A stretch of DNA of 64,000 bases, from assembly GCF_964355755.1 (NCBI RefSeq), contig NC_092678.1:15543881-15607880 (forward strand), read 5' to 3'. The stretch is from Antedon mediterranea. Taxonomy: Eukaryota; Animalia; Echinodermata. Positions 13,661 to 53,049 of this stretch are shown here, one piece after another. The notes under the pieces were generated by a model. It was given only the letters and a program-made list of their open reading frames with translations, was not told the DNA's origin and ran no database searches. The translations under genes were made by a program, and so were the position numbers. Within the stretch, counting starts at the first letter, position 1, and every line of letters starts with the position of its first letter.

Positions 13661-13736
13661 TATAAATAGTTCTTTAGATACGTGTATGGACACAGTGCCA
13701 TATGCTTATGTAGCTGTTCAATATTTATAGGGGTGG

Positions 13737-14937
13737 TTATTGTTGTTGTCCGTTTTTTGACCACCTGCACGCTGACTGTGAGTGGCCGCCTTTACATAAC
13801 AAGCAAATGTGAGCTAAATTGCAGTTTCTCTTTACACACCCTCTATCACCGTTATAATTGTTGCAGATTTCTCTGCCTTGATGAAAGACGCGTCGTCGAC
13901 CATACCAGTCGTTGTCTGCGTTAGGGATGGTCGTATTTCTAGTAGCTTTCTTAGGTAAGTTTTCGGATATATCGCAGAAGGCTGTGTAGTGTGCTGCTGC
14001 AATAGTTGCATGTGTTAGGGCGACTATTGGCAAAAATGTTACAGAAAAGCGTGTTATTTCGTATGGACCAGTCGACAAGGACATTGTTGTATCTCAAATG
14101 TGAAGCCGCAATTAAGCTAAATTGTTTGTGATATTCATAAAAACCCTTTCCAGGGTATCGAGAAGCCATGTCTACAATGTCCCTTTCGTATTTGTCGAGC
14201 TCCTCTCTCCGCTGGGGGTGGGCAGTGCACATGATATTTTTATAAATCCCAAAGGCTATATTGAGGGATTTTGCCAATCGTGGATCGTGTTTGAACAAAT
14301 TAAGTTCATCTTTATTGTCTCGGGGTGAAGCATTGAATGAAGGAATTAATAGAGAAGCAAGATTAATGTTCCTACCTGATAATATTTTTTGGCGGATTGC
14401 AGGTGATATAGTTTCCACCATGGGCAGTGATTCCGCAGCGTATCCAAACCTGGTACGTATGTGTGTTCCTCTTTGTGAGGATTCTTCAACAACAGTTGCC
14501 GACGTACTAGGCCGTTCGAATGACTCGACTGCTGAATGAATGGAGAATGGCTCCAGTGTGATGTCCTCACTTGTCGGTGCTCTAGAGCTAGTGGCAGTAT
14601 TATTGATTAGTGAAGGACTACCAACTGCCGGCTGTTGTTGAGAGCTCATCGAACTCACTTTTTGTGTCAATGATGCCACATTTTGTTGCAGATTTTGAAC
14701 TGTTGTTGACAACTTAGAAACTAAGTCTATCAGTACCCTGTTTGTAGGATTTCTACTCTCGGCAGCTTGAGGTTCGATTGCTGGCCGAGCAATAGTGGCT
14801 TCATTGAATAAGCGCAACAACTGTGCTTTTGTGGCCTTTGATGAGTGTCCAATTCCAAGTTTCTTAAGTTCACCTTTTAGTTTCGCTACTGACCAATTAT
14901 CATACGGCGCTGGGCGTTTGCTTCTTGTTGGAGCCAT
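13737..14937 (-). pseudogene. Ngaro gag-like ORF1, frameshifted near 13980
   Basis: N-terminal SAP/HeH-like WSVAKLKGELKKLG, coiled coil, AFGIYKNIMC...ELDKYERDI...FYEYHKQF core, C-terminal CNNYN..GC...CNLAHICLLCKGGHSQSAC zinc fingers. Confidence 0.85.
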
Positions 14938-15177
14938 TTTAATAATATCAGTACAATTAATGAAACTGCCGTTGAAGTATAATAAATGAAATTGTGTCTC
15001 GAATAAATTGATTACAGATTCGCTTGAAATGTTCTGAAATACGCACAGTAACCAAAATGATACAATAAACCGTTGTATAAATACTCCAAGTAAGATGAAC
15101 GTTTTGATGAAGGTTGAACGATTCCTATTATGGAAAATTAGTACTGAGATTCAAAGTAATATATCCACAAAGTATCC

Positions 15178-15531: not shown

Positions 15532-16378
15532 AAACTATAATTTATTACTTTAAATTTCCTTTTATATTCTTCTATACGTTTCAACGTCAATATAGACATT
15601 GACGTACTGACGTAGCCTTGTAAGTAGAAACACAAACTGAACTAGAATATCTTGTGAAAAAAGTCTGAATTGAGAATAAGAAAGTAGAATTATTTCTTAA
15701 TGTAACAAAAGCGATGCTGATCTATAAAACACAATCAGAAAACTAATTTCAACTATCAGTAAACTACAGAAATATTGGAGTAGTGGCCAATTCAATTATA
15801 TCGGTTTCATGATCAATGTGAAACTCAATGGCAGCGCAAACGCAAGCTGGTGGTGGTCCAGCATGAACGTCAGGCTAGTTATCGGGAGTTTCCACCGGAG
15901 GATAAATTACAATTTTTTTTTCAGTGTTCTCAATGAACATAGTATAATACAAATTTACGTCAGAGTAGGGCAATTGTATTACCAATATTCAACACCATGA
16001 CACAAAGATATTCCACAGTATTCAAATACAATTATCACATGTCGATACAGTACTGCTTACTTGGTTCACCCTTAGCCATCAGCGCAATCATGGTCAATAA
16101 TATGAGAGACAACTGCTCAACGTCTGCTCATTGCAGGCTGTAGAGAAGGGACAAAACTGAATAAATCAATGGGTACCGGTTAGATCAAGAAACAAATTTG
16201 CGCTGATTACTAGCTGTATTATTATGGGAGTTTGTTTCCATACGTCTAAGCAATGACCTGGTAATAATATATGCAGCAAAACTGAGAGCTTACTAATGGG
16301 CTATAAGAATGAACTATTATTATCAACAATGGCGTCGTCTGTCAAATCATGGATTGACTCTCATGTTGAATATCTTAA

Positions 16379-17770
16379 AGATGCATTTTCCCTTGAAACA
16401 CAAAAAAATGAAGGTCAAAATATTATAAGTTTAAATTGGCCATATCAAAGTAATATTAAAGTTATTCACTTTAAGTCGAAAATTCAAGCCAAAAGCAACA
16501 AGTTTACGTAATTAATAGGTAAATTAGTTTGTTTACATTTCGTCTGGAAAATCGTCGCGAGCGAAAGTAAACAAGGATTTCAAACCACGAGTACGCATTA
16601 TGCATTATGCTAATTACAATTGTTTACAACTCGTCACGGTTGGGAAGGTATTTTCACACAGATCGTGAGGAAGTTTTATGATTATGCATACAGAGTAGCC
16701 AAACAAGCGCGTTTCATTATGGGATATGTTTTGATCGAAAGCTTTTTCTGGAAGTCAAAGTTATTTTTTTAACAAAAAAACGTCTGTATTTCAGTTAAAT
16801 TATTTTTTTTGCGCGATAAATTTTTGGTGATAGCAAAGAATATATATCACAAGAATGAGTATTCCGTGATTTTTGCATGAGAAATTTGTAACAGAGAGCT
16901 CCAGAGAGTGATTCCCGCCCTCATAAGGGCGGATGTATACATACAAATAAGACTTGATTTAATAGATATTATACATGTCACATTAAATAGAATTATGATA
17001 ATAGTTTTGCAATTGTAAACTATTTTATAATACATATTTATTAACAAACTAGTGTACATTCACTTTTACAGACAATTATTTACTAACATGCTAAGTTAGT
17101 TCACAAAAAAGGCCTATTACAGAAACACCTAAAGTCAACGAATCGTTACTCAGCACGGCCTATTCTTTACCATTGCCCGTGTACTACTCTACGCCCGGTA
17201 AATTAAGTATTGTTTTTATGATATAAATTAGTATAAAATACATGTTATTAATAGGAAAAAATGTTAAATGTCATTAACATTTATTTGTTTTACCAGAAAC
17301 AAGTTAAATATAGGAATATTATTAAACTATCCTACGTGAAAACGCGTAAACACCAACACGCCCGGTCACGCTATTGTAGCGCCCGGTTGATAAAGCAAAC
17401 TGTTTATACGGCAGTTTTTACTAAATAAATTGCATAAAACGAACAATTAAATATCCAAATAGTATTTAACATGATGTTGGCATGTAGTTGACAACAGTTT
17501 TTATCATGAAAATACTACCGGTGGTCCAGCCTTTGATTAGTGAAACCGTCACAAAAAGTTGCATACATCCCAGATACATCCACACTTATGGCGGCGCCCT
17601 ACCACATGGACAATATTACTGTTACAGGGAAAATCGCGGATTACTCATTCTTGTGATATATATTCTTTGGTGATAGTTAATAACTATTATGATACTTCAA
17701 AATGACCCACCTTTTTTCGAAATCTGTTATTTTCTATTTTTTTGGAATTAGTCAAAGGGACAATACATCT
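16379..17770 (+). mobile_element. Non-autonomous Kolobok element (copy 1) with a nested P-like element
   Basis: TTAA-AGATGCATTTTCCCTT ... AAGGGACAATACATCT-TTAA; same family as 34451-34991 and 49727-52497. Confidence 0.8.
16834..17669. mobile_element. P-element-like non-autonomous transposon
   Basis: TIR CAAAGAATATATATCACAAGAATGAGTA / TACTCATTCTTGTGATATATATTCTTTG; 7-bp TSD GTGATAG (16827-16833, 17670-17676). Confidence 0.8.
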
Positions 17771-18315: not shown

Positions 18316-19966
18316 GTTCTAGGACACCTACCCCCTAGACAGTTACCCCCCGGATGTTTACCACCCGGACAACTACCCCCTTAGGACAACTACCCCCCGG
18401 ACAACTATCCCCCGGACAACTACCCCCTTAGGACAACTACCCCCTTAGGATAACAACCCCCCGGACAACTACCCCCCGGACAACCACCCCCTTAGGACAA
18501 CTACCCCTTAGGATAACTACCCCCCGGTCAACTACCCCCCGGTCAACTACCCCCCGGTCAACTACCCCCCCCCCCCCCCAATCCAAAAGTAGACAAATAT
18601 ATAGGACCGGTTTCTGTAAAAATGAAATCATCTGTTTTTAACGGGTGTTTCGAAACTAGAGACCCGAGACCAGAGACCTGACACGAGACCCAATACGAAA
18701 AGAGAGACCTATATTTGGGTCTCCATTTTCGTATATTAGGGTCTCCCTTTTTGTATAGTGGGTCTCCCTTTTCGTATATTTAGGTCTCCCATTTCGTATA
18801 TTTGGGTCTCCCTTTTCGTATATTTGGTCTCCCTTTTCGTATATTTAGGTCTCCCTTTTCGTATATTAGGTTCTCCCTTTTCGTATAGTGGGGTCTCCCT
18901 TTTCGTATAGTGGGGTCTCCCTTTTCGTACGTGGGTCTCCCTTTTTGTATATTTAGGTCTCCCTTTTCGTATTGGGTCTCGGGTCTCTGGTCTCTGGTCT
19001 CGGGTCTCCAGTTTCGAAACACCCGTTTTTAACCGATTATTCTGTTTAACAGCACGCTAGACCCTAGATGTGCTAGATTTAAAGTACCGTATTTATTGAA
19101 AAAACGGCCTGGGCTGTTTATTGTTTAGGTGGTTTTTAGGTGGACATTTATTGGAAAAAAGTTGTTTATTCAATGGGAGGGGGTATAATCTAATGGAAAT
19201 AGACGCCGATTATTCCATATGATGTTTCATGGGAGTGACATGGTCACCGTTTATTTGAGGGGAATTTATTTAAAGATCGACGTTTATTCGGTGAGTGAAC
19301 ATTGAGGTCAAATATCAAAAGTGATATTATTCTTCAAGTGTACAAAAATACATATATGACAAATTTGAGACAAAAATTAATTCTTTTAAGACCAGTGGTT
19401 ATCGAAGCATTGTCCTGACGCAAAAATTATTATTATTATTAGCGAACCCAGTCTTTACAGTAAATACATGGAGTACTATATAATACGTTCGACTATCCTA
19501 TGATCATGTGTGACAATCTTTAGTTTATACCACCAGGCTATATTTATGTTCAATCTTTTACTTTTGTTTACAATAATGAATAGCAATTCGTCAAAGTAAC
19601 GAATTAAAATATAGTTATTAATTAATAGTTGCAGAGTCAGGTTGTTGAATGGTCTGGGTGGTTAGGGTGTTCTAAAGGGATAGTTTTCTGGGTGGTAATT
19701 GTCCGGGGGGTAATTGTCCGGGGGGTACCGTAATTGTCCGAGGGGTAATTGTTCCTAGGGGGTAATTGTCCGGGGGGTAGTTGTCCAGGGGGTAGTTGTC
19801 CTAAGGGGGTTGTTGTCCTAAGGGGGTAGTTGTCCGGGGGGTATTTGTCCGGGGGGTAGTTGTCCTAAAGGGGTAGTTGTCCTAAGGGGGTAGTGGTCCA
19901 GGTGGTGGTTGTCCGGGGGGTAGTTGTCCGGGGGGTAAATGTCCAGGGGGTGAATATCCGGATACG
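18316..19966. mobile_element. MuDR/foldback-like element with GGACAACTACCCCCC tandem arrays in both arms
   Basis: Arrays at 18316-18580 and inverted at 19680-19966; 9-bp TSD CACGGAACG (18307-18315, 19967-19975). Confidence 0.8.
18643..19024. mobile_element. Nested MuDR-like MITE with a ~21-bp internal tandem array
   Basis: TIR GGGTGTTTCGAAACT.GAGACCCGAGACCAGAGACC; 9-bp TSD GTTTTTAAC (18634-18642, 19025-19033); (GGTCTCCCTTTTCGTATATT)n. Confidence 0.8.
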
Positions 19967-20581: not shown

Positions 20582-21439
20582 GTAAAACCCAATTGGATCG
20601 ACGAGTTGGATCGTCCAGTTGGCTTGTGGGTTAGGTTTTTAATAATTAGGACGAGTTTTATTATTTATGTTTTTCATTAAGACAAGTTCATAGTTGATAA
20701 ATCTAAGCCATCAGACAGATAGATGCACTATTAGACGACGATACATGACCAATGTGAGTACAGACATTATCCCAACATTCACTTCCAAAATCAAAATCAG
20801 TAGGTGAGAGGATTCATTCTCCGTATGGGTAATGGATTCTCACCACCAGAATCATTCATCAACTACAGTCATCCTCCAAACACAGGAACATAACACAAAA
20901 GTATGAGCAACATCAAATCAGTTCAAGACATGTACTTGTGCTGACCTCACGAGCTTTGCGAACCGTCAACCCCGCTATTCAGTAGATAAATCCAATCCCC
21001 GACAAAAAATACTGCAACAAAATAACTTGTTGACTTACTCTTTCATACAGCAAATTCAGCCATAAACAGGGTGAACTGAAATTAAGCATACTTAAATCCA
21101 GCTCCAAATAGTATTAATAAACATAACATAACTAGAAAACTATCTGCAAAACAGATCAAACGTAGCACCCTCTTACGAAGGTGTACATGTGTAAACAAGG
21201 TATCAAATAATCAACAGTGCCCTAATACGGGCATGGCTAATTCTATAGATACATCATACATAATAGAACAGCGCCCTCTACACGAAGACTGTGTTTATCG
21301 TATATACAATTCACTAGCAATTAATACCCACCCCAGGGCGGGTTTCAAAATTAGTTTAAAGGCTTCTCAGTATAACACCCAACGCCAGTATGTCCCTATA
21401 CTATGGCACGCCAGGACGGACATAACTATGACAAGTTGA

Positions 21440-21760
21440 CCTCGCTCGTGTTATGTAGACATCGCTCGTGTTGAGTTTAACACATCGCTCGTGTTATGGA
21501 GGCATCGCTCGTGTTGAGTTTACACATCGCTCGTGTTATGGAGACATCGCGCGAGTTGAGTGTATACACATCGCGCGTGTTGAGTTTATACACATCGCGC
21601 GTGTTGAGTTTATACACATCGCGCGTGTTGAGTTTATACACATCGCGCGTGTTGAGTTTATACACATCGCGCGTGTTGAGTGTATACACATCGCGCGTGT
21701 CGAGTTTATACACATCGCGCGTGTTGAGTTTATACACATCGCGCGTGTTGAGTTTTACAC
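21440..21760 (+). repeat. Left subterminal array of the IS3EU-like element (19-24-bp units)
   Basis: (ACACATCGCGCGTGTTGAGTTTAT)n and CATCGCTCGTGTTATG variants. Confidence 0.92.
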
Positions 21761-21848
21761 GATATAATCATGGCCGCCGGGGGTTGAGGGCGTTCTCAGC
21801 TGCGCAATCATCAGCAGGGAATTCCCATCAGCAGAGCTGAGAGGAGAA

Positions 21849-22027
21849 ATGGCGTCTACTGAAGGAATCTTAGATCCATTGGGACGAATTTATTAGATTA
21901 AATGATTCATTCGTTCATCGGACACAAATACTGTTGAAAGAATACTATTATGGGAGGAACAGTGTAGGACATTCATCATCTAGGCCTAGCCTACATAATT
22001 GTTGCAATAGTAGTAGTACAGTAGTAC

Positions 22028-22059
<32 letters not shown>

Positions 22060-24500
22060 CTAGGGCCTCTTAGGCCTAGGCTAGTAGTAGTACTAGTTAG
22101 TAGTAGGGGGAATCTGACCTAGCCTAGCTAGGCCTAGCCCTATGTATTATACTCTAGCCTAGGCTAGGTCTAGGCCTGGCAGACCTTTAAGTCTTATTAT
22201 ATGTCCAGGCCCAGCCAGCCTAGAAGGTCTAGGCCTAGGCTTAGTGTAAAATCAGGATAGGACAGGATAAAAATCTAGCCAAGCTAGGCCTGACCCAGTC
22301 TCATGACAGAAATTATGCATCTAGCTAGGACCAAGAGGAGGAGGCAGGGACGGCCTAATAATAGTAGACTAGGCTAGGCCTAGCCCACACCCAGCTAGGC
22401 CAACACTAGTCTAGGCCTAGAGTTACTTAGCTAGTACTACTAGTAGTAGAAGTATGGGCCCTAATAATGGAATACAGATCAACCCGTACACATACCAACT
22501 CGTATCCAAATGTTGGCTCACTCGTACCCAACATTTTTTGGCTTACCCCTACTACCATCATGTAGATAATACAATCATATAGGTCCAGAGCCAACGGACT
22601 AGCCTAGGCCTACTGCTATGCAAAATCTAGCTACAGGCCTACAGTACCTAGTCTACTTTCTACTCCTGATTATTGATAGTCTGATTTAATGGTACTGAGC
22701 TATTAATTATACTAAAAGCCTAATAGAGGGTACTGTAGTAAGGTACAGTGGTATGTCAAACTTTGGTACATACAGAGGCATAGGTAGCCTTGGTTGGTTG
22801 TCCTCGGTAGGCTTTTGTTTTTCTTTTGACAATCTAATAAGGGACTGGGGAGGGAGAAGGAATGAGTTAATCAGACTTAAATGTTTTAGATATAAACCGA
22901 GAGTAATATGCAAAGTATTTATAAATGACAATTCCACTACGATTCGACTGTAGTACAGCATTCATGTTGTACAGTAGTTCACATTATGAAACTAGAGTTC
23001 TTCATTTTGTATTTAATAGTTATATAATTTATGTTGATTTAATGAATTTAGACATTTTGGGTCAAATCATTACAGACACTTCAGCACCTGACTCATCTAG
23101 TGGCAGACATACTCAAAATACTGCTTGATATTTTGCGAGGTATTGGTCATCGTTTAGAAATAAAAGTACCATGCAAACCCACTTTGGTCAGGTCATACAG
23201 GGCGTCCCAGGTATTGTATGTGTTTAAATAAATGATCCTTTAAAAATCATGTAATAAAAAAGGTAATTTTTTTTATATATATTTAAAACATCAGTTGGTT
23301 CAATGTTTCCTGTCAAGGTTAGGCCATTGGAGAAGATTTTGAAAATAAATTGGCCCAGAGTATAAAAAAAACTGCTTGATACTCAATTGGATTTGTCTAT
23401 GAGCCTGTTGGTTCTGTCTATCTCAAAGTAATATATCCTCTAATAAAATAAGAATCAACCAAATTACACTATAGTTTTAATTAAATACAAAAATTATTAA
23501 TTTTTAAAAATATTTTTATTATGCTATAAGTTGATTTTCCCGATTACACTATAGTTTAAATTAAATACAAAAATGTTTAATTACTTATTTATACCCTTAT
23601 ATGGCTGGTATTGTTTTGATTTATTGTAACACACTGCCGTACATGATTTTGTACTAATGAATGAAAAATGAAAATTTTCATAATACTGTAGTTAATAATC
23701 ATGTAACCTTGCAAACTTGACTATTACATTTGTTTTTTTAGGTTGAAAAAATATTTGTTCCATATTTGATCCTGTTGAACGAGCTTTGCGATGAAGATCC
23801 ACAATTGTGAGAAGAACCTACAATGTAACTGTTCCAAATCAACTATGGTATGTATGCATCTCCATGGGTTTTACTATGATATTACTTAACTCAGTACTTG
23901 TATGCAAATGTAAGGCATTATTCAGGGCGTTTATATATGGTTTATATAAAACGATCTGTTTAATTAATGATATCTACAAACAAAACTGTAACTACCCATA
24001 TTAAGCTTGTTGAAACCTAATCAACTTTCATTAGTTTACTTAAATGTTAGATATTTCTAGATATTTTTAGATTTAAGACTTTTGTCTGCATAAATAAAAG
24101 CATTTATATAAAGTCATACAGACAGACATACATATATTTTATTTGACCTTTTGGTAATAAATAGACATTTTGTATGTTATGCGATTTTACCTTTTTTTTT
24201 TTTTGTGCAAAATAATTAGTACCTGTACAGTTACACATTTTTTACTAAAATGAATTTTGTTAATGATAAACTAACTGTGCGCAATGGTTTGAAAGCCAAT
24301 GCACCTTGGCAAAATGTAATTTATCTTTTCTGTTTTTTACAGGCACATAGATTCCAACCACAAACTTATCTCATGGAGGTTTGTCTTTCATGGATGTATT
24401 GATGGGGAAACAAGATGTGTAATTTATTTAAAAGTTGCATCAAACAACACGGCAGGACAAATTTTAAAGTATTTTGAAAAAGGTTGCACAGACTTTAGTA
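21849..24500 (+). pseudogene. Decayed inverted copy of transposase exons 1, 2, 4 and the start of exon 5
   Basis: Exon-1 relic ATGGCGTCTACTGAAGGAATC; exon-2 relic 23076-23210; exon 3 missing; exon-4 relic 23742-23848 with a deletion and TGA; exon-5 relic [51 protein letters not shown] ends ~24497. Confidence 0.88.
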
Positions 24501-26099
24501 CTTTTTGTATTTTTAAGAAATCTATTCTTCGTACTTTTAGATGTTGTATTTTTTTATTTTGAAATATATATAAATATACTGTATTTTAAATTTAAGAGGT
24601 TGTGTCAAAATGCTTATTAATATTATAATCTTATTTATAATACTAAATTTTGATGTTTTAATATATAAGTGTATAAACAATTTTTAAAACTGTATCCATA
24701 CTTTTATATATCTATGTATCTATGTCACTTTTTGTCTGTCTTGATGTATTTATGTAAAGCGCCTTTACATAAATTAAATAAAATAAAATATAAATAAAGT
24801 AAAGTATAAAAGTAGGCCCAACGTCAGCCATAGACTTGTTTACCTGTTTATTTCCGAGTTGTTAGAAATATTTTTTTATTTAAAAAAGGCGGAAATGTGG
24901 CATGACAAATTTCAGAAAAGTGGGCTAGGTACAAAATAATAGTATAACTAGGCCCAGATATTTTGATATATAATTTACAGTATTTTATAGTAATATGAAT
25001 AAGCTGTTGTTGAAAAATAAATATATATATTTAATAGCATGATTTCCAACTTTATTAGATATTGAATGTTACACTAATGGCCCAGTTGATTATTATATTC
25101 TTGTGAAATATGCACCAACATGCATTTAAGATATATTGCCCTCCTTAACATTTTTTAATTGTTTTCACATATGCCATTTTAATGTTATATATTATTCACT
25201 TTGACGAATAATTGGATCAAGAAGAAAAAAAATTTCCTTGAAAAAACTGTAACAAAATTGACCAAAACAACAAATATTAAGTGTATATTCATACTTGAAA
25301 ATTTATTGTAAGAATGGAACAAATGTATGAAAAAAAAAAGTATTTCTTGTAAAATAAAAGACAGAATATGTCATATAATTATAAATAAAAATATTTTAAT
25401 GATGTGGAATCATCAGTGACTAGGTCTCAATGAAATACAAATAAAATAAGCAAAAAGCTTAAAATTAAAATTAATTTATGTTCTAAAAAACTGTTTTTTT
25501 TCAGGTAGGCCTAGATAATTTTTTTTTCACTTCTTTTTTTCGTCTGTACCTTTTATATTTGAATAAACTTTGAAATGTAAGTTTTGTAATAATTTAATTC
25601 TCTTAATTCTTAATTGCGTTCAACAACAACAAATACATGAATTACAATTAAAAATTATTTAAATTTAAAGATAAGAGTATTCAGTAGTCATTCTTGTAGT
25701 ATTCAGTTGTCATTCTTGTAGTATTCGTCTTTTGCCGCATATTGAAAGAAATGTAACTACTGACAATTTGTTCTATTGCATTCATAAACATTTTGTATAA
25801 TATTGAAGTTTGTGGGGGAGGGGCATGTCACAATAGCTAATATATTGACAGTACAGAAGATACTGCTAGTGAAAAAGGTCAACATTTTTTAGGGGGAGGG
25901 GAATTGGTTAGGGGGTCCATGGCCCCAGCAGCATTGCGCCCGGTATTTGTTCAGAGTCTTGTGTTAATGATCTCTGATAAAAAAAAAATTGCAGCATTTT
26001 TTTTATCTGCCCGATACCCAACACCTATATCAGATGACACATTCCCTAACACAGGCAGACTAGCACTGGCAGTGATACAATTACAGGAGTATCCTAAAC

Positions 26100-29000
26100 A
26101 TGTCTCAGCAAAATGAATTAACCAGGTTATTCAGCATTTTAAATCGCCAAAGAGAGATAGAAGATATATTTGGCCAATCTTCAAGGTATCTATATTTGAA
26201 TATTTGTTTTCAACAATATATTTTATGAGCATTTGCCTAGGTCATGTTCATAGGCCTATGACTAGCCCATAGGCTATATATTCACCTCCCTGCCCTAACT
26301 AAGTTTAGCTAATTCCAGCATGGTCCTACTGCAAATTTGGGACTGTACAAACAATCCATAAAAATCCAAAACGGCCTGAAGAGACCAAAACGCCCCTGAA
26401 ATCTACAACAAAGACGAATGGGCATGTGAATTATAAAATCTCTCAACAAAAAGATTATATGGAATTATAATTTGTATTATTAGGATTTTCAAGAATCATG
26501 CTTATGAGCTATGTAGGCCTATGGTGCGCATCAAATGTCAAAAGTGGCATTTCTTTGGGTTAAATGGATTTGATTAATTTTTTTTTTTTTTGTGGATTAA
26601 TTTGGTTAATTGTGACATTTCATTTATTTATGTAAACATAACATAATTAAAAAATTTATTTTAAAATAATATTTATCTAATGATGAAATTCTTTAAAATG
26701 TCAATTGGTTTAGGCACCAAAAATCCCTGTGGTAAAATATAGTATGATTAAATGTGGTAAATTATTTGTGCAAAATAAGAATTTACAGTGGTTTTATACA
26801 GTGTTAAATAATAGTTATTCAAGAAGCATTTTAAATTTTGATGGTCTTGCATTTATTTATTCTTATACTTTTTCCACAGGCCAACTACTGCAACTGTGGC
26901 TTCTACTACTTCCAACCCTTCTTCTTCTGCCCCTTCTACTTCCAACTATTTTACATCTGCCCCTTCTACTTCAAACCCTTCTACATCCACTGTGACTGCA
27001 CCGGTTGTACCAAGATATCAATTTCAGGCAAACTTTAGACCTTCCAACACAAACAGAAGAAGAAAAAGAAATAGAAATGATGTGTAAGTGGTTTTTGAAC
27101 AATTTATTCAATGTTGATAATGTCAGAATTAATCGTACCTTTCTCATTTTTAAAGATGTACCTCCCAAACATTAACATTAAGTTAACCAAAAAAAAAGAA
27201 CATACCAAACAATGTTTTATAATGAATAAATTTACTTATAGTGGAACAAAATCCTTTTATTTATCATAAAGCAAGGGTAGTAGTGGACCATACTTCAGGG
27301 AAGTTGTCCTTGTTTCCGGGCCAGAAGTCAACACAGTGCCAAGACATGGTTCAAAACTGTTTCTCGCTCAGCATGGACATGTCAAAACAGGAGTGCGTTT
27401 TATGAAAGAGTGGGATGATCAACAGATTGTATCTAAACTCAAAGACCTTTTTCCAAGCCTTGGTGATGTTAAGTGAGCTACTTTACAAAATTTTAATTGA
27501 AAAAGTATTTACACTTATTGATTAGTTTATTGCATTAAAAATGGTTTATTTGTGTTTGGTAATTGTTTAATTGTTTCACTATTATTGATTCAGATTCGAA
27601 ATACTCTACAGCATAGGGCAGACTTTGGTAAAACCCCAACTTGAAAATGGACAGAAGATATCAGGATTCATTCTTTCCAAAATGATCAAGTACACTAAAC
27701 CTGTATATCTACGACCTGAGCGGGTACTAATTGAAGGGATGGAACAAGTGGTATGAATCTTAAAATATTGTCTTAAGATATCAGGCCTTAAGTTTTTTGT
27801 TTTTTTTTAATATGTTTTGGCAAAATAATGTTTTTATTTACAGATTGAAAGAGCAAAAAAGAGGTTGCCATCTCCACCGATGTTATCGGATGATGATATG
27901 GATTTCATGCCTTCAGAAAATATTTTTCCATCAACACGTATGTAAATCATAACAATTAACATAGAATTACAACTATTATGTATTATGTTTATCACATTTC
28001 CAATACTACGGACTAGAAAAATGTGGCATTGTCCACTTAATGAAAACAAAATTAGGATGGGGTGGCTTATTTTTATTTATTTTATTGGTGTTAAACATCA
28101 TTTTAAAAATTATGTAGTATTTATATAAAAATATTGTTTATTAAAGCATTAAAAAATCAGTCAGAATGTTGCTTTCTACTAAATTGATATATTAAACCTT
28201 TATGATCTTTTTATATTTTGTCACTATTTTAGTTGCTACTTCACTGTCGACTGTTACATCTACACCAGCCTCAACAGATTGCGCAGTTACATTATCATCA
28301 ACCGCACAATTGTTACCTACACTGCCATCTGTAACTACCATACCATCATCAACACCTTCTTCAAGTGCAGGAGTTCCATTTTGCTCTTCAGCTCCAACAA
28401 CTTTCAGAGTGTATGACAGGTTAGTATTGGATTTTAGATTTATGAATTGTATGTACCTGTTATTGTTCGTTGTTCAGATGAATGCCAGCACCATATGCAT
28501 ATAACCACAACCCTTGTTTTCATTCAATTCTTATTTTAGTTTATTTGTTGAAGACACCGACTTTATCCAGTGTGTAATTAGTGATGATGATGATGATGTA
28601 GAAGATGCTAATGTCTTGTAAGTATTTTTTTTAAACGTTTTTAAGATAGCTGTACAAACAAGATAAGAATTACAGTTGTTTATCTCATTACATTTAGGCA
28701 AGATGATACATTGCTGAGCGACATTCTGGTAGAATTGTCAGGGAAAATAGACTACAAACTTCCACGGAATCTGTTCAATATCTGGAGAGGAAATGTGTGG
28801 GAAGGAGCGAAAATTGGATTTAACCGAAAAAGGTTCAACCCTTGTGCCCAGTTAGATGTGGTGTTTGCAGACAGCACATTGAATGTCGAATTTAGTGCGG
28901 AAGGGGCTGTGGACCTTGGAGGTCCCACAAGAGAATTTTTGACGCTTTGTATGAAAAGCATGCAGGAAGGACGTTGTTTCATCGGAGATGAAAAACTTCT

Positions 29001-30675
29001 TACTAGAGATGCTGAAGGTGTGTTGCAATAATATACATCATATAGAATCCTCCTCTTCTATATCATATAGATGGAGTCAAAAACATACACTAATGCTATT
29101 AGAGAAAACAGCGTCATTGTTTTGTAAGATTTTTTGTGTCAATGAAACCGTTTTTACACTTGAATTCTAATAACAGCCACTGAATTTAATTGGTTTTTAC
29201 TGATATTTTTTTTTTCGCAGCCATAGCAGCACAAGATTATTTGTTATGTGGAAGAATAATCGCCACCTCACTGGTTCATGGTGGACCAGGTCCACATTTC
29301 ATAGCTCCGATTTTATTTGAAGCGATTGTCAATGGGCCAGAAAAGGTGCATGTACCTTTAGAAGCACTGCCACCAAGTGAAGTGAAGGAATCACTGCTTC
29401 AGGTACAAACTAACATCTGCCTCATTCAATATGGAAAATGTGTCAAAGGATTCTTTTTAGTGCAAAATGAAATGTATGAAAAGTTAATTGGCATTTTATC
29501 TTAGGTTTTTTTTAGATATCTTACCTTTTCCCAATCCATTCCACTTATTTTGTGTTTGTGTACAAGGGCTGCAGGTTGTTAAACATTGAATTTTGTCTTT
29601 GATTTAAAGCTAAAAAATCTAACAGTAGTGCAATTTATTGAAGCATTGGATATGCCAACGCACAGTGCTTTGGCTACTACCATCGACAATGCCGGTAGTA
29701 TGGTCAACGTAAAATCTGTCGAGGACATAGAAACTGTGGTACAGAGAACAGCACAATACTTTCTCTTTGGAAGGACAGCTGATTGCTTAGATCAGTAAGT
29801 ACTGCATTACAGTATTTGTTAACTGGACAAATTTAACCAGCCCCTCACAGTTACAGAAAGTACAACTAAATAAAACAAATACAAAACGATACCAAAGAAA
29901 ACAAGGCAATTTTTGTTTTAAATTAAGTTACTATTTTGCAGGTTCAAATCAGGTCTATCCACACTTGGTGTTTTAGAAGCTATGCGACAACACCCTACAG
30001 CCTTCAAACAAGCATTTTTAAGAGAAGAAGCAACAATTGATTTGAGGTTGATGAACAAACTGTTCAAGACAAAGATATCAGAAGATGATGACAAAAAAAG
30101 TACTGAAATGCGTGTCCTCAACCAGTGGAGGCAATTTCTCCAACAAATTGATGGTAATGAATGACAATTTTTAGCTAGATTACTATAGTACATAAACATT
30201 TAGCTCAGCATTAGACCAGACCAGATAATTTGTTTTATAACAGGAAGACAATAACTGTATATTCCCACACTTTTTCTAAAATTGTGTGCAACAATAAAAA
30301 TAGAGATGTGTACACACACATTTTGACAGCCTACTTTTCTAAGTTGAATACTTTCATATTATTTATTGTCATACCTGTAGTTACTATAGTTCTTGTTTAT
30401 GCTATTAACAAAACATTTCTAATATAGATGATGAATGCACAACATCATTCCAAGACATTTTGATGTTCGCAACAGGACTGCGGACCCTCCCTCCTATGGG
30501 ATTTCAACCTGGCAAGCCAGAAATTCATTTCTTACATGGAGATGCCAGCAAGTGGCCAAAGGCAAATACCTGTAGCTCTGTGCTACTGCTACCCGTAGTG
30601 CACAGCTCATTTGCACCATTCAAAGAGGCCATGTCTTTTGGCATTGGTAATGCCCAAGGCTTTGGTTTTGCCTAA
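26100..30675 (+). CDS. HECT-domain E3 ubiquitin ligase (G2E3-like HECT), 12 exons, ~717 aa, inside the transposon
   Basis: GT-AG exons 26100-26185, 26880-27083, 27272-27472, 27594-27750, 27844-27937, 28233-28419, 28540-28617, 28698-29017, 29221-29402, 29610-29794, 29942-30153, 30428-30675 join in frame (2154 nt); motifs EGAVDLGGPTREF, GRIIATSLVHGGPGP, QFKSGLSTLGV, LMFATG..PPMGF, PKANTC (catalytic Cys), terminal GFGFA*; first exon and start are least certain. Confidence 0.85.
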
Positions 30676-31223
30676 AGTTGGTTGGTTGGTTTTTTTTTCG
30701 TTTTGATTTCTGTTACAAAATATTTGATTTATGTACAATTAACCAGATATTATATTTCAAATTCATGCCTGTACCTCTGCTTTAAAACCTAGATTTGTGA
30801 TATTGTGTTTTTACTTTTTTTTTAATGAACAATCTTTCTCCTCTATGTCAAGGATGACTGATAGAAATCTTCAGATTGTACTTTATATACATTTATAAAA
30901 ATATTTTTCACAACTTTAGATTTATTTATATATATATGCATATATGCTAGTGTTGCCCGAAAGCTCTGCTAACTTTTCTAGCTGTTTTACTTTATCGTTT
31001 TGATTTAGCTTTTCGGTTTTTTTGTATCTCCTTTGAGATCAAGCCACCCATACCCCCACAGCATTGTCATTTTTTCAGTAATTTGCCTTTGGATTTATAT
31101 ACAGTACATATATAAATCAATGTGTTGCGTAGCACTGTGTAAATTATCGCAAATTAGCTATGCTCGACGCGATTATGAGATCATGTTCCGAATATGAGAA
31201 CTGTTTCTATAATTTACAGTATG

Positions 31224-31263
<40 letters not shown>

Positions 31264-32050
31264 CCAAAGATAAACACATCAGGCAAAGAACATTTATTAT
31301 AAACCGCCCGGTGATATACTGAAATTTAATTATTTAATTTGAAATGATAAAGATGAGGAAATCTATATAAATATAGCCATTCTTAGTAACATAAGTATAA
31401 CAAGGTTTAATTTATTAACACAACTCTAGTATGACAATATCAGTATGACAGCGAAAATCATGGTTTTACAGGCAGCATTGTTTAAATAAGAACTTTTTCC
31501 ATGACATCATGCAAAGGGGTGACACATATATTCAGACTTTACTGTGTATATACATTTGTAAAAATATGTTCTGCAACTTTTAGATAATATATAAATATAT
31601 AGCCATTTTAAGTAACAAAGTTTAGTTTTTTAATTATAAATGACTAGTTTTACAGGCAGCCTTGTTTAAATGCAGTAGAGTAGTGCAGCATAATAATAAT
31701 TCCAACCTTCAATTAGCAATTTGTCTATAATGTTCACATATCTTGATTTCTCTAATTAACAATTTAAACTATATACCCTCAATTATCAGTATAAAAACAA
31801 TAAACTAGATTTAAACGAACTTGTCATCATGGCAACAAAAAATACACTAAGTGTATTTAAAATATTTATCATACTGTACTGCAACTGTGTTATTGAAACT
31901 TGTTACACAAATATTGTTATATTGCATTTTCTGTAGATGGATGGTATTCAATTTACTATCAAAGATTAAAGGAAAGGTAATTTTTGCAGTTTGAGACATT
32001 TTGAAGTTTGCTGTGTATTTTATATTATCCATTACAACCACTCCATTAAA

Positions 32051-35000
32051 TTATTCATGTAATCTCAATGTCTCCCTTAATTGAACATAAAGGTCAATAC
32101 CATAGTTACCATCATCATACAATGCATTAAAGTTGTCAAGTTCCTGAATAACTTGCTCATTTGGTTGAAAGGTAATCTGAGGAACACAAACATTATTGTT
32201 AGTTTGAATTTCAGGTACAGGACCATCATAATCAATCCCAAAATTATCAACATCCTCATTAAACAATACATGATAATTATTTTGTAATGTACCTCCAAGC
32301 CACAATGCCAAAGGAGATTGACCATTCATTGTACGCAGTCCATGGTGATTCCACATGGAAATAAATTGATCTAAAGATTGCTGAATCCTGGGTTGGTAAA
32401 CACTATGGAGACAGAATAGATCAAGGTCATCTGTCGAACAAAGCAGGTTATTATATTCTAAAAAACAAAATATATCTTTGTATAACCAGGAAACAACTCT
32501 GTTTGTTTCAGCCCAAAGTCTTTCAATACGCTGATTATGGACGCTACGGCCAGCAATGAAACTACCTCTGTCTCCACCTCTATTATCTACCATAAATCTA
32601 GCTACATCAACATTTTCAGTTCCATGGTCTCCTCTCACTCGTGAAGGTATACCAAAGTCTGTGCAACCTTTTTCAAAATACTGTAATACTTGTGCTGCCG
32701 TGTTGTTTGATGCAACTTTTAAATAAATAACACATCTTGTTGCCCCATCAATACATCCATGAAAAACAAACCTCCATGAGATAAGTTTGTGGTTGGAATC
32801 TATGTGCCTGTAAAAAACCGAAAAGATAAATTACATTTTGCCAAGGTGCATTGGCTTTCAAACCATTGCGCACAGTTTATCATTAACAAAATTCATTTTA
32901 GTAAAAATTGTGTATACTGTACAGGTATACTATTTTTTTGGCCCAAAAAAAAGGTAAAATCGCATAACATACAAAATGTCTATTCATTAGCAAAAGGTCA
33001 AATAAAATGTATGTATGTCTGTCTGTCTGTATAACTTTATATAAATGCTTCTATTTTTATTTATGCAGACAAAAGTCTTAAATCTAAAAATATATAAATA
33101 AATGTGTGCCTCTAACATTTAAGTAAACTAATGAAAGTTGATTAGGTTTCAACAAGCCTAATATAGGTTGTTACAGTTTTGTTTGTAGATATTAATTAAA
33201 CAGATCGTTTTATATAAACCATATATAAACGCCCTGAATAATGCCTTACATTTGCATACAAGTACTGAGTTAAGTAATATCATAGTAAAACCCATGGAGA
33301 TGCATACATACCATAGTTGATTTGGAACAGTTACATTGTAGGTTCTTCTCACAATTGTGGATCTCCATCGCAAAGCTCGTCCAACAGGATCAATAATATT
33401 TAGACGTTCTCTAATACGCGCACGTGGAACAAATATTCTACGACCTAAAAAAACAATTTTAATATAGTCTAGTTTGCAAGGTTACATGATTATTAACTAC
33501 AGTATTATGAAAAAAATGAAAGCGCAAATAATTTCTAGTTTTGTAAGTAGAGTAGGACAATTACGTGTCATCACTATCAACCCTCGCATGCCAAAAGTAT
33601 CGACCTTTTACGAAAAGCAGTACAAAATCATGAACGGCAGTGTGTTATAATAAATCAAAACAAGACCAGTCATATAAGGGTATAAGGTATGAATTTGTCC
33701 TCTAGCTTAACTGAAAAACCGAGGAAATTCAGATTAGGCCCTCCAGGGACCCACCGCAATCAGCAGTGCAATATATAATATAATAATAATACAACTTCAT
33801 GAAGTACATTTTTATGACATAGTTATATAAAATGATACAAAAAAAAAATGAACAACCTCACCTCTAAGCCCACCTATTACATATGTTTCACCAGACTGTG
33901 GTGCCAGATATAAAATATCAACTATATTTTGGTCCAAATCCTCATCAGATATGGTAGTGTAAGGATCATCAGGAATTCCAAGATGACTCCTATGTCTTCG
34001 TAGTGTCTTTGCAGAAACATGAAGACATTTTGCAATGTCCTTCCATTGCATCCCAGCTTCCCGAAGTTGTTCGATTTGGGCTTTGGTTATGTCATACCTG
34101 CACGAATAAAAAAAAAAAAACTTTTATTACATTTGTGGCTACTATTAGGAAAATCAACTTATACTGTAACATAATAAAATTATTAAAAAAAATCAATAAT
34201 TTTTTTATTTAATTAAAACTATAGTGTAATTTGGTTGATTCTTATTTATTACAGGATACATTTCTTTGAGATAGACAGAACCAACAGGCTCATAGACAAA
34301 TCCAATTGAGTATCAAGCATTTTTTTAATAATCTGAGCCCATTTATATCAAAATCTTCGCCAATGGCCTAGTCTCGACAGGAAACATTGAGCCAACTGAT
34401 TAAATGAATATTTAAAAAAAATAAAGCAACCTTCATCCGACTTCTTTTAAAGATGTATTGTCCCTTGAAACACAAAAAATGAAAAAAAAATATTCTAAAT
34501 TGAAATTGGCCATATCAAAGTAATATTAAAGTTATTCACTTTAAGTCGAAAATTCGAGCCAAAAACAACAGTTTACGTAATTAACAGGTAAATTAATTAG
34601 ATTACATTTCGTCTGAGAAATCGTCGCAAGCGAAAGTAAACAAAGATTTCAAACCATGAGTATGCATTATGCATGATGCTAATTAGGATTGTACAACTCA
34701 TCACGGTTGAGAAGGTGTTTTCACACAGATCGCGAGGAAGTTTTATGATTATGCATAAAGAGTAGCCAAACAAGCGCATTGCATTATGGGATATGTTTTG
34801 ATTGGAAACTTTGACTGGAAGTCAAAGTTATTTTTTGAACAAAAAAACATCTGTATTTCGGTTAAATTTTTTTTTTTTGACTATTTTTTGGTGAAAGTTA
34901 ATAACTATTATAATACTTCAAAATGACCCACTTTTTTTCGAAATTAAAAAAAAAAAAACTTTGGGGAATTAGTCAAAGGGACAATACATCTTTAAGGAAA

Positions 35001-38000
35001 AAGAATGACCTTTTTAAAGGATCATTTATTTTTCCACATACATTGCAATACCTACCTGGGACGCCCTGTATGACCTGACCAAAGTGGGTTTGCATGGTAC
35101 TCCTCACTGCCTCTGATTTCTAAACGATGACCAATATCTCGCAAAATATCAAGCAGTATTTTGAGTATGTCCTCCACTAGATGAGTCAGGTGCTGAAGTG
35201 CCTGTAATGATTTGACAAAAAAAAAAAATGTCTACATTTATTAAACCAACATAAATTAAATAATTATTAAATACAAAATGAAGAACTCTAGTTTCATAAT
35301 GTGAACTACTGTACACAACATGAATGCTGTAGGCCTACTACAGTCGAATCGTAGTGGAATTGTCATTTATAAATATTTTACATACTCTTACTCTCAGTTT
35401 ATCGAATCTAAAACATTTAAGTCTGATTATCATCATTCCGTCTCTCTCCCCAGTTTTGGAGGGTCCCTTTTAAAATTGTCAAAAGAAAAACAAAAGCCAA
35501 GGCTATACCTATGCCTCTGTATCATGTAAGTTAGACCTACACTACAGTACTCTATGCCTTTAGTATAATAGCTCAGTACCATTAAATGAGATTATCAGGA
35601 GTAAAGTAGCCTAGACCTAGGCCTGTAGCTAGGCATCAGTAGGCTAGTCCGTTGGCTCTGGACCTATGACTACGGGTAAGCCAAAAAATGCTAGGTACGA
35701 GTGAGCCAAAATTTGAATACGAGTTGGTATATGTACTTGTATTCCAGTATATTAGTTAGGGCCCCTAGATAAAATAAGTAGCTCTAGGCCTAGGCTAGTA
35801 GTAGGCCTAGCTGGGTGTGGGGCTAGCTAGGCCTATACGTAACCTCTAGCCAGGGCCAGGCCTACCAGCCTAGTAAATAGGTCCTCCCTGCCTATTATTA
35901 GGTATCCCAATGTAAAAATTCAAATTAATGATGGTACTTTTTCTTTCAGTTAATCAGAAGGAACTTACTGAACATAAACTTTTGCAATTTAAATGATTGA
36001 AATCGGATTATCCATTCAAAAGTTATGGTCCATTAAAGTGCCCAAAAAACAGTGATTTTTGCTTGAAAAACGGCACTTTTTCTAATTATATTTGAACCCA
36101 TTTTTGAAGGGTTATAACTTTTATACTAATAATTTTAAAGTTCTTATTTTTTCCAAACCCATAGATACAACAGAGTTGTACAAGAATTTTTTTTTTTGGG
36201 TGTCCTCGACATTTTTTTTTTTAGATATCGCCCTCCAAAATTCGTCCGAGGGCTTTTTACGCGTGATTTTCCCAATGTCTCAAAAATGCCCAAAAAGTTC
36301 CTGTCTTTAAATGATTCATAACTTTTGAACCAATGTGTGAATTAACTTCTTTTTTTTTGCATTGCATAAAATTTAATATGTATTTTAGTAAGGTTATTTA
36401 TATTGACAGGTAGGTAATTCTGAAATACAACATAAAATATTGTTAAAAAATGTTAAAATGTGAAAAAAAAAAATAATGCGTTAAAAAACTGTGTGGGTAT
36501 TGTTTCTTTTCATTAAATATTATTTTTCGTAAGTATACATTTTTTTTTTAATTCTAGTATTTAAAGTTATATTTATAATCATATATTATTTTAATTGATT
36601 TTCGAACCGCCAAAAATAAGAATTAAGCCCGTGCTTATTATGTGTTCGATTCCATTTGGAGCGCCGGGCCGAACGTAGACTCGGCCGCGCCTACTACAAG
36701 TTAAGTTATATAGGCCCCTAAGACTAAGGTCTAAATAAAAGCCTGGCGCTAAATTCTGCCTAAGACTAAGAAATATCGGGAAGAAATTTTTTATTTAACA
36801 AAGTAATTACCTCAATGGTATAATTGTAACATGTTTAATTTTATTTCCCTTTCGATTATTCTAACCGAAAGTTGCACTTTGAATTGAAATATACGGAATA
36901 AAATTTAGGCCTAGAAACAGCGTAGACATACAACGGCAACACAGGCCAAAGCGCGTTTCGGCCGCCTACATAGAATGGCTTACGGCCGCTGCATAGCAAA
37001 ATCAAAGCTTCTTAAATTTCTTCGGTACATTTCTTCCTAACGTACTTGCTTTATATAGTAGATTTATAAATATTCCACTTATTAAATAATTTAATAAATC
37101 GGTAAAATTGACGTTTCGAAGCAAATATTCCATGAGAGGCGACATTTTTCGACATGCCTCGTGTGCGGCGAAGACTAGTTCAGAAAATGGAACAGTCCAC
37201 TGCAGGGGTTATCCAATCATTAATTAACGCGCTAATACATGCATACCATGCACATTGTCTGGGCGACGGTAATTTAGTAATAAGCGGAGAACTGAATCCC
37301 CCCCGTAAGGAAAATGGTAAACACTGATATTTTTGGTAGGGATTATTTTTTTCAGTGGTTGGTCTTGTTGGCCTCTTCGCACGAGGTCCACGCAAAGTCA
37401 AATAAAACGATGTGGTTTATCAAACAAAAATATAAATTAGCTTCAATTCAATACTAAATTAGCCAAATTTTGATAATGAGAAAGACTAAAAAATTCAATT
37501 TTTATCGTTAAAATTGACATTTGAGGCGGATGTACATAATAATAATAACCGATTTACATATCAAAATAAAGAGTATTTAAAGCCTGATAACATGCAACAA
37601 AAATTACTCCACCACCTATTATGGACCTCGTGCGATCGTGTTTTGAAAATGGGTAGGTGTTTTCCAAAGTTATTTTTAGCGCGCGGATTTCGGCTCGCCG
37701 GCTTTTGTACCTCATTTTTAACTCGAGTTTTCTATTAAAATATTTAATAAACATAGATTAAAAATATATGAAAATAATCCCTTAAACAAGATCTTTCCAG
37801 ACATATAATTTTTTTTCACATGTGTATATAAGAAATAGTATATTTTTAACTTCAAAGACACGTCACTTTTTGAAATTTCACGAACGTGTTAAAATCGCGG
37901 TAACGAAAATCCGCTTCATTGGGATACCTACTATTATAGGCCTAGGCTTATCCTGATTTTAACACCAGGCCTAGGCTGGCTGGGCCTGGGCATAATATAA

Positions 38001-38299
38001 ATAATGGGCTAATAATATAGACTTGGGTCTGCCAGGCCTAGACCTAGGCTATAGGTAGAGTATAATAGATAGCTTTAGTATATGCGTCGGATTCCCCCTT
38101 TATAGGCCTACTAGCTAGGGCTAGGCCTAGGTCTACCACCTACCTCGACACTGACTACCATTGCAACAATGTAGATGAATATCCTACAATGTTCTTCCCA
38201 TAACCTCTGTATTCTTTCAACATTGTTTGTGTCCGATGAATCATTTAAAAATTCACCCAATAGATCTATGATTCCTTCAGTGTATTCATTAAACGCCAT
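32051..38299 (-). CDS. DDE integrase-core transposase with N-terminal HTH, 5 exons, ~475 aa
   Basis: Exons 38299-38144, 35201-35056, 34097-33862, 33444-33312, 32807-32051 join in frame (1428 nt); [42 protein letters not shown] (D), [12 protein letters not shown] (D), [13 protein letters not shown] (E), WNHHGLRT. Confidence 0.9.
34451..34991 (+). mobile_element. Non-autonomous Kolobok element (copy 2, uninterrupted, 541 bp) in transposase intron 2
   Basis: TTAA-AGATGTATTGTCCCTT ... AAGGGACAATACATCT-TTAA; absent from the left-arm copy of this intron. Confidence 0.85.
35899..37930. mobile_element. Non-autonomous DNA transposon (hAT-like TAG..CTA ends) in transposase intron 1
   Basis: 14-bp TIR TAGGTATCCCAATG / CATTGGGATACCTA; flanking direct repeat CTATTAT (7 bp); absent from the left arm. 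Confidence 0.7.
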
Positions 38300-38394
38300 T
38301 TCTACAGTCTGATTTCTCTCACTTTCTTTGACAAGAGAGAGAATTGAAGAAAGGACGAGAACCGGAAATTCTAGCCACGCCTCATCTCTCGATA

Positions 38395-38760
38395 TGCGCG
38401 ATGTGGAAAAACTCAACACGCGCGATGCGTAAAAACTCGACACGCGCGATGTGCAAAAACTCAACACGCGCGACGTGTATAAACTCAACACGCGCGATGT
38501 GTATTCACTCAACACGCGCGACGTGTATAAACTCAACACGCGCGATGTCAACATAACACGCGCGATGTCAACATAACACGCGCGACGTGCAAACTCAACA
38601 CGCGCGATGTCAACATAACACGCGCGACGTGTAAACTCAACACGCGCGATGTCAACATAACACGAGCGATGTACAAACTCAACACGAGCGATGCCTCCAT
38701 AACACGAGCGATGTGTTAAACTCAACACGAGCGATGTCTACATAACACGAGCGAGGTCAA
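38395..38760 (-). repeat. Right subterminal array of the IS3EU-like element
   Basis: (AAACTCAACACGCGCGATGTG)n and ACATAACACGCGCGATGTC variants, inverse of 21440-21760. Confidence 0.92.
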
Positions 38761-39245
38761 CTTGACATAGTTATGTCCGTCCTGGCGTGCCATACTATAC
38801 TTATCACACCCCACACTGCTTTTTTGAAAACAAACGCTTCCCAGAACAAATTCAACTTCTAATGAGAAGAGTATACATAGCTAAGTATAGGCCTATAGGG
38901 TATAAGTACGTTGTAAACTTTGTAAATGAATAGGTGTCATATAGGCTGATAATTAAAATATCTAATTTTGATCTGCGGGACCCCAGCCTTCTTTCTCCTC
39001 TCACCATCCCAGCCACAATTAACAAACCTTAACAACTCTACCCCTGTACAGTTCGAATTTAGTAACTTTTCCTAGTAAAATTCCAATCATATATACTTCA
39101 TTACGCCAGTATTTCGGCTACGCTCTTCCTTCCTCCCAACACACCCCAGATAATGGGTGATGTGTTTATAAGACGGTTCCAGTACAAATTATGTTAGCCA
39201 TCCAGGGCCGTAGCCAGGATCTGTCAAGGGGGGTTCGGACACTAA

Positions 39246-52286: not shown

Positions 52287-53049
52287 TAATGGTTTGAAAT
52301 CTTTGTTTACTTTTGCTCGTGACGATTTTCCAGATGAAATGTAATCAAACTAATTTACCTGTTAATTACGTAAACTTGTTGTTTTTGGCTCGAATTTTCG
52401 ACTTAAAGTGAATAACTTTAATATTACTTGATATGGCCACTTTAAATTTAGAATATTTTGACCTTCATTTTTTTGTGTTTCAAGGGACAATACATCTTTA
52501 ACTAATTGTATTGTATTTTATTTTAATTTGTTGTGGACGAAACATTACTAATGTAATTATATTGTACATGTGTTTAGACAGTACTTCCAGAGTAGGTGTT
52601 TTTTAAAGGTCTGTTAACACTATCATAATGTATGGGACAAAACAGTGTGATGTGCCCATATATGGACACGATGACGTTATAACACTACCATATTTCGGAA
52701 TATCACTACCATTATTAGTCGCATGCAACACAACTCTACAGCTCACTATATGTCGGTCGCTTGGTCGGTCGGTTGGTTGATTGGTCGGCCGGTAAACACT
52801 ACATAAACGCGACTGCAGCTATGTATATGGCCTTGTTTGGACACATAAAATTTTTTGTTAAACTAGTTTGATAGTTTAGACAGAGTTTTAGTAATGCGAG
52901 CCAAAGGTTACCAAATCTGTTGTTACCATTATCTTTTTAAGAAAATATTTTTGATAATAATAATCAATGCTTAGCGCTATTAAGTTAAATACATTGTCCC
53001 CTAAATGTTTTTTTTTTAATTTTGTGTTGAATTTTTTTTTAAAGAAACA

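Follow-up and report, generated by a model that had tools for sequence, protein, structure and literature searches.

An IS3EU DNA transposon of the echinoderm Antedon mediterranea with a HECT ubiquitin ligase gene convergent to its transposase

Transposons of the IS3EU/GingerRoot group share TA..TA ends (TAYGG..CCRTA; PMC10045372, PMC12730594), a 6-bp target-site duplication and a transposase core (Repbase; PMC10045372; PMC6839031), and IS3EU was reported to encode two proteins (Kojima 2019, as cited in PMC8232023). Rust-fungus TET+ IS3EU families have the same TAYGG..CCRTA ends and an alpha-kinase gene opposite the transposase, and transposon TET/JBP cargo was described as exchanged between elements, clustering by host genus and not by transposon (PMC12730594). 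Among ubiquitin ligases, G2E3 and GL-Metazoa are class IV HECTs with a divergent HECT domain, and HECT divergence has been attributed to lack of constraint (PMC3673628). Here we describe a stretch of 64,000 nucleotides from Antedon mediterranea (assembly GCF_964355755.1, contig NC_092678.1, positions 15,543,881 to 15,607,880; the window, numbered from its first letter), which contains, at 21402-38794, an intact DNA transposon of the IS3EU/GingerRoot group. Its second gene encodes a protein with a predicted ubiquitin-like domain followed by a complete HECT domain.

The element is 17,393 bp long, opening with TATGG at 21402 and closing with CCATA at 38794. Its two ends are identical in inverted orientation at 29/30, 59/60, 119/120 and 165/180 nt, and the target-site duplication CTATAC on the left (21396-21401) is matched perfectly by that on the right (38795-38800); because the duplication is perfect, the element moved with its present ends. 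The 30-nt end has only two matches in the window, with no third copy at up to 8 mismatches. The left terminal inverted repeat (21402-21760, plus strand) holds CpG-rich subterminal tandem repeats of 20-24 nt with an observed/expected (o/e) CpG ratio of 1.85, which probably serve as transposase binding sites; the right one (38385-38794, minus strand) likewise holds subterminal tandem repeats of 20-24 nt. Inside this one pair of ends the transposase gene (minus strand) and the HECT gene (plus strand) are convergent. The TA..TA termini, inverted repeats longer than 30 bp, 6-bp duplication, DDE transposase and two proteins that characterize IS3EU/GingerRoot elements are all present. A long non-coding frame across the terminal repeats was rejected as an artefact of the tandem units. 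CpG o/e is 0.32-0.51 within the element body (21800-34100), 0.83-0.86 in the flanks, 1.85-2.1 in the terminal repeats, and 0.38 and 0.45 in the two coding sequences, a contrast which suggests that the body of the element, and not its ends, may have been methylated over a long time.

The transposase gene (32051-38299, minus strand), modeled from splice sites, Pfam and motif comparison, has five exons (38299-38144, 35201-35056, 34097-33862, 33444-33312 and 32807-32051), with GT-AG at 4/4 introns and no stop across 475 aa. It encodes an IS3EU helix-turn-helix DD34E transposase with catalytic residues D227, D284 and E319 (D..E spacing 34). The Pfam matches are rva_4 (E 5e-68) and, below the cut-off, HTH_23 (E 7e-5). 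Intact homologs align over nearly the whole protein at about 50% identity, and by eye its core agrees at every motif with those of Repbase IS3EU elements (for example IS3EU-3_DR, Data S3 of PMC10045372). Intron 2 contains a nested 541-bp non-autonomous element (34451-34991) with AG..CT ends and a TTAA duplication, which is absent from the left arm of the transposon. We take its family to be Kolobok-like; at least three further pieces of it lie in the window (16375-16833, 49723-50072 and 52289-52501).

The HECT gene (26100-30675, plus strand), modeled from splice sites, RefSeq and homology, has 12 exons (26100-26185, 26880-27083, 27272-27472, 27594-27750, 27844-27937, 28233-28419, 28540-28617, 28698-29017, 29221-29402, 29610-29794, 29942-30153 and 30428-30675), with GT-AG at 11/11 introns and no stop across 717 aa. 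Since the splice sites were picked by eye, and an open chain by itself is no proof, the gene models needed outside support. Residues 229-717 (exons 5-12) are identical, letter for letter, to RefSeq XP_071959901.1, an A. mediterranea protein named G2E3-like. Because that model begins at Met229, support for exons 1-4 comes from homology, with residues 7-210 aligning to full-length homologs at 34% identity (E 4e-26). A single-exon HECT search matched the RefSeq protein only.

The complete two-lobed HECT domain is encoded at 28698-30675 (exons 8-12, plus strand), as judged by Pfam and predicted structure. Its Cys684 lies 33 residues before the C-terminus, within the HECT norm of about 30-35, and a Phe stands at position -4. 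The Cys is kept in 30 of 34 aligned homologs, the other four being truncated (three) or diverged at the end (one). An AlphaFold model of the HECT protein (P0001) shows the two-lobed fold with a mean pLDDT of 77, and about 90 over most of residues 111-482; its best structural matches are the HECT domains of Smurf1, Smurf2, ITCH and HUWE1 (E 1e-12). The sole PDB sequence match of the ligase is UBR5. The near-perfect termini, the perfect 6-bp duplication, the two in-frame genes, and the catalytic Cys with the Phe at -4, all of which had been proposed from the letters alone in an earlier sequence-only reading, are thus confirmed. It is improbable that the HECT protein is selected but non-catalytic, serving as a decoy or scaffold that binds ubiquitin or an E2, in the manner of the HECT of mammalian G2E3: the nearest Atlas structure cluster is indeed G2E3, whose HECT is described as non-functional (PMC3673628), and the Pfam scores are modest (E 1e-13), but the Cys and the C-terminal aromatic residue are conserved among homologs only about 30-40% identical.

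In front of the HECT domain, residues 100-209 (27272-27750, exons 3-4, plus strand) are predicted to form a ubiquitin-like (beta-grasp) domain. The N-terminal domain of a sturgeon homolog, folded with pLDDT 80-93 over residues 31-140, matches almost exclusively ubiquitin-like beta-grasp domains at Z 5.3-6.7, which is below the tool's mark of 8 and so counts against the call, just as the omission of exons 1-4 from the RefSeq coding sequence counts against the N-terminal gene model. Residues 100-209 of the window ligase match a profile of the sturgeon domain with E 1.4e-30. In the zinc-ribbon and UBX subgroups the N-termini lie beyond the reach of this profile; across 20 scanned proteins, Pfam found UBX above the cut-off in two, and weak zinc-ribbon matches in other subgroups. 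The three N-terminal RING/PHD-like fingers of G2E3 gave no Pfam match in any of the 12 exons. A basic patch at residues ~87-94 (27056-27083, plus strand), with similar patches in homologs, is a candidate nuclear localisation signal. An Atlas search with the N-terminal domain returned unnamed clusters only. The Atlas feature neighbours include an unnamed Basidiomycota cluster, and clusters with Neuralized + HECT and UBX + HECT are among the structure neighbours, so that other kinds of N-terminal module may exist.

The same pair of genes recurs in other genomes. A convergent transposase was found at 21 of the best 80 of 180 metagenome HECT loci. Of these 80, 58 are short or incomplete and were dropped; of the remaining 22 informative loci, which reach the HECT C-terminus with at least 2 kb downstream, 20 have a transposase, representing 9/10 families (85% clustering) and always in the convergent layout, as compared to 0/27 in an upstream control; six of the 20 come from one family in one assembly. 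Three loci are complete two-gene elements with perfect and distinct 6-bp duplications: L070 (8,852 bp, GATGTC), L078 (13,077 bp, AGATTT) and L086 (7,307 bp, CTACAC). L070 and L078 belong to a related family and exemplify scattered insertion within a single genome, each at its own target sequence. L071 has both ends with differing flanks, and one end is visible at L045, L066 and L080. At L078:746-14986 the HECT-bearing element apparently sits inside another element, whose inverted repeats are longer. In the tubeworm Lamellibrachia, the best HECT homolog, LSAT2_008744, and a transposase homolog, LSAT2_008745, are consecutive on one contig. In a sturgeon HECT cluster (15 of 23 members listed), copies at least 90% identical lie on at least eight chromosomes. 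Among the matches listed, a sturgeon transposase accession is 1-4 numbers from the HECT one on 3/8 chromosomes, lies non-adjacent on the same chromosome in two, and is missing in three; adjacency was judged here by accession order, a proxy for DNA position. Many genes annotated as G2E3-like are likely to be transposon cargo.

Anchoring the search on the transposase gave 19 loci (L082-L100) in contigs of eight prokaryotic metagenome-assembled genomes, some with HECT genes; these contigs most likely stem from animal hosts and were binned with the GTDB genomes. Thirteen of the loci have at least 4 kb downstream, and of these, four have a convergent HECT gene, two a HECT gene upstream on the opposite strand, and seven none or a weak match. 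The ligase is therefore common in IS3EU elements and not universal. By Pfam, no other recurrent cargo was found in 58 of 83 listed frames near transposase loci. Viral contigs contained no transposase locus and one marginal HECT locus, which gave no match on re-check. One locus (L096:9195-10854) is an IS3EU element shortened to 1.66 kb by internal deletion; it is flanked by a perfect 6-bp duplication, gave no HECT match, and shares its first 12 nt with the ends of the window element.

The left 3.1 kb of the window element (21402-24500), on which the sequence-only reading was silent, repeats the right end, as far as transposase exon 5, in inverted and decayed form. Alignment to the right arm gives six blocks of 92-96% identity, counting substitutions only, and shows that 21850-24500 (plus strand) corresponds to the 5' two-thirds of the transposase gene, inverted and dead. 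In this copy, exon 1 has a frameshift plus a stop, exon 2 is frameshifted with 11 nt lost, exon 3 is absent, exon 4 is part-deleted with a nonsense codon, and exon 5 ends after about 51 codons. Cargo held between a dead and a live inverted copy of a transposase recalls composite transposons, and one could propose that two inverted copies of a simple element once captured a host HECT gene between them, making the ligase a passenger. We consider this very improbable. A composite would have two flanking elements, each with an outer and an inner end, but the 30-nt end search of the window found no inner end in the left arm. Arms in five two-ended relatives are an ordinary 146-428 bp, and such relatives hold the same gene pair; for both genes the closest relative is in the tubeworm pair; and the linkage counts together with the complete elements L070, L078 and L086 largely refute a single capture. 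With arms of this size in the relatives, long inverted arms are ruled out as a family trait, and the left arm is a rearrangement in the window family and not the origin of the cargo. As the 541-bp insertion is missing from the left copy, the arm duplication likely predates it. A later rearrangement would have put a copy of the right end at the left, after which the element would have moved with these ends. The Lamellibrachia models of LSAT2_008744 and LSAT2_008745 (P0122 and P0194) have nearly the same first 45 residues in the HECT and transposase neighbours, which suggests either an annotation artefact or an inverted first-exon copy in one arm that would mirror the left arm of the window element.

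The ligases of the relatives are under purifying selection. In 18 loci with single-exon HECT domains, giving 20 unsaturated pairs, the ratio of nonsynonymous to synonymous substitution (dN/dS) is 0.18-0.31 in 16/16 pairs with dS of at least 0.07 (p 2.5e-3 to 2e-29). Near-identical ligase pairs gave 1.05, 1.80 and 0.29 on few changes, and one pair is identical; two transposase pairs gave 0.13-0.15. The outcomes that would have spoken against the sequence-only reading, namely a one-off capture, neutral evolution of the HECT copies, or a single-copy host gene, were looked for in relatives and mostly did not materialize in view of the 20/22 linkage with distinct duplications, these ratios and the dispersed sturgeon copies. 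The ligase is very probably a selected cargo of the element. Purifying selection alone is silent on the beneficiary, and the ligases could have been kept by selection on the host, as domesticated or beneficial cargo which the element merely spreads; a grouping of HECT sequences that is independent of the transposase (see below) would fit such a function. We find this quite improbable, as the copies are dispersed, near-identical, often truncated and nearly always beside a transposase, and dN/dS is near 1, on few changes, in two of the three near-identical pairs with any change, as for transposon copies.

We compared the histories of the two genes in 17 HECT/transposase pairs. The transposases form two deep clades, about 30% identical, both represented among the Repbase IS3EU cores. 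A HECT clade of seven rows (support 97/96) pairs with transposases of both. The Mantel rho between the genes is 0.03 (-0.05 on core columns, p 0.68), and in approximately unbiased (AU) tests, forcing a group from one gene's tree onto the other gene was rejected both ways (p 0.0015 and 4e-6). Strict co-inheritance of ligase and transposase is ruled out by the tree conflict and by the Mantel and AU tests. The window element groups with the tubeworm for both genes (HECT 100/100, transposase 75-83). The tree comparison proposed with the sequence-only reading therefore came out divided, with agreement at the tips and conflict at depth: because the trees disagree at depth, the ligase module appears to move between transposase lineages, being inherited with the element in the short term and exchanged in the long term. 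The TET/JBP cargo of transposons, grouping as it does by host genus, offers a precedent (PMC12730594).

The DD34E transposase binds the element ends, excises the element and reinserts it at sites cut with a 6-bp stagger. In HECT ligases, ubiquitin is first transferred from an E2 to the catalytic Cys and from there to a substrate. In the mechanism we propose, both genes would be expressed inward from the element ends, the basic patch would direct the ligase to the nucleus, and the variable N-terminus (ubiquitin-like here, UBX or zinc ribbon in relatives) might pick the substrate or contact p97 or the proteasome. The target would be host-encoded, since the module persists when swapped between transposases that share about 30% identity, and some elements lack it. 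On balance, and judging from sequence features, we lean slightly towards a ligase that works in the nucleus against a host-encoded substrate, probably a silencing or chromatin factor, and so may ease expression or transposition of the element.

The ligase could instead ubiquitinate its own transposase, either limiting its dose or letting p97 or the proteasome strip the strand-transfer complex from DNA, much as ClpX strips the MuA strand-transfer complex. The fixed convergent layout and the co-divergence at the tree tips are in line with this, and UBX in 2/20 scanned proteins together with the ubiquitin-like domain here suggests p97 or proteasome contacts. We nevertheless hold it to be unlikely, though worth serious attention, because one well-supported HECT clade serves both deep transposase clades, and many elements seemingly manage without a ligase. 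A complex prediction for transposase exon 5 (251 aa) and residues 75-489 of P0001, run without alignments and with both N-terminal regions excluded, scored 0.05 as compared to a mark of 0.34, which we take neither for nor against a contact. The sequence-only reading had offered host silencing factors and transposase turnover side by side as targets; the lack of deep co-divergence favors the former over the latter. It had also taken the ligase for a working accessory of the element, and the recurring convergent pair and the purifying selection in relatives uphold this, except that the ligase is not in every IS3EU element (4/13 loci).

Our best reading is that the ligase is an optional, host-directed accessory. 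Several observations weigh against it. A convergent HECT match is missing at 9/13 transposase-anchored loci, some of which may be decayed, and no neighbouring HECT and transposase accessions were seen in rainbowfish, cichlids or a second sturgeon transposase cluster. The dN/dS values come from relatives rather than from the window gene, to which none of the sequences is closely related, and the pairs are non-independent. Co-divergence at the tips (window/tubeworm; L009/L013; L007/L015/L021) is also expected of a transposase-directed ligase, and gene trees at 20-50% identity can mislead. A host target is proposed from sequence comparison and models.

A wider reading, which we put forward only tentatively, is that IS3EU has a slot for an interchangeable anti-host protein-modifying enzyme, a HECT in animals and an alpha-kinase in rusts. 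The G2E3-like and GL-Metazoa ligases might then be largely mobile, swapping between distant transposases and degrading silencing factors as viral E3s do, and the HECT of vertebrate G2E3 could be a domesticated relic.

The window also contains features outside the element. On the minus strand at 5543-15150 are a tyrosine recombinase (5543-6106), a reverse transcriptase (9821-10774) and a HeH-containing frame (13954-15150), which suggest a DIRS/Ngaro-type element; the region is interrupted at 10830-13673 by a long interspersed nuclear element (LINE) with endonuclease and reverse transcriptase, and at 6531-9258 by an element of 2.7 kb whose inverted arms measure 484 bp. In a short element at 18320-19963, repeats of 15-17 nt form inverted arrays, and a tandem array of 22-nt units lies inside. 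A galactose-3-O-sulfotransferase gene in a single frame (Pfam E 2e-51) lies at 54659-55810.

The pairing of HECT with IS3EU was not found in the published literature that we searched, a body that lies apart from the Repbase entries and Kojima 2019; it is possible, if rather doubtful, that these name the HECT domain. In their accessible parts, the HECT surveys PMC3673628 and PMC2837046 do not contain the word stem 'transpos', and the main text of the transposon papers PMC10045372, PMC12730594, PMC11934779, PMC8232023, PMC6839031 and bioRxiv 2021.09.26.461848 does not mention HECT. What this locus adds is the swapping of modules, the N-terminal ubiquitin-like domain and the duplicated dead left arm. 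It identifies what many animal IS3EU elements encode as their little-studied second protein, and offers a testable case of a transposon encoding its own ubiquitin-writing enzyme. Multi-copy G2E3-like annotations in fish and marine invertebrates can be re-read as genes of transposons; this changes how expansions of E3 ligases are counted and bears on the view that class IV HECTs diverged because they were 'unconstrained'. The substrate of the ligase would point to a host factor that restrains IS3EU elements.

In summary, the window element differs from described IS3EU/GingerRoot elements in that its second protein is a ubiquitin-like + HECT ligase, and in its size, since it spans 17.4 kb and one arm, of 3.1 kb, contains a dead transposase copy. 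Compared with the rust TET+ families, its cargo is a HECT E3 in an animal, and no TET or kinase gene was seen in it. With G2E3 and GL-Metazoa the ligase shares the divergent HECT domain, its UBR5 match being class IV as well, but it is without PHD/RING fingers, keeps its catalytic Cys, and is of a type that is multi-copy and inside transposons. Tn5 and Tn10 also hold cargo between dead and live inverted transposase copies, whereas here the left copy is without an inner end and the cargo is older than the arm duplication. Other ubiquitin and SUMO enzymes carried by transposons are the Ulp1 and OTU protease domains of MULE, Zisupton, Ginger1 and Helitron elements; those domains remove modifiers and are often fused to the transposase, whereas the HECT protein described here is a stand-alone writer.

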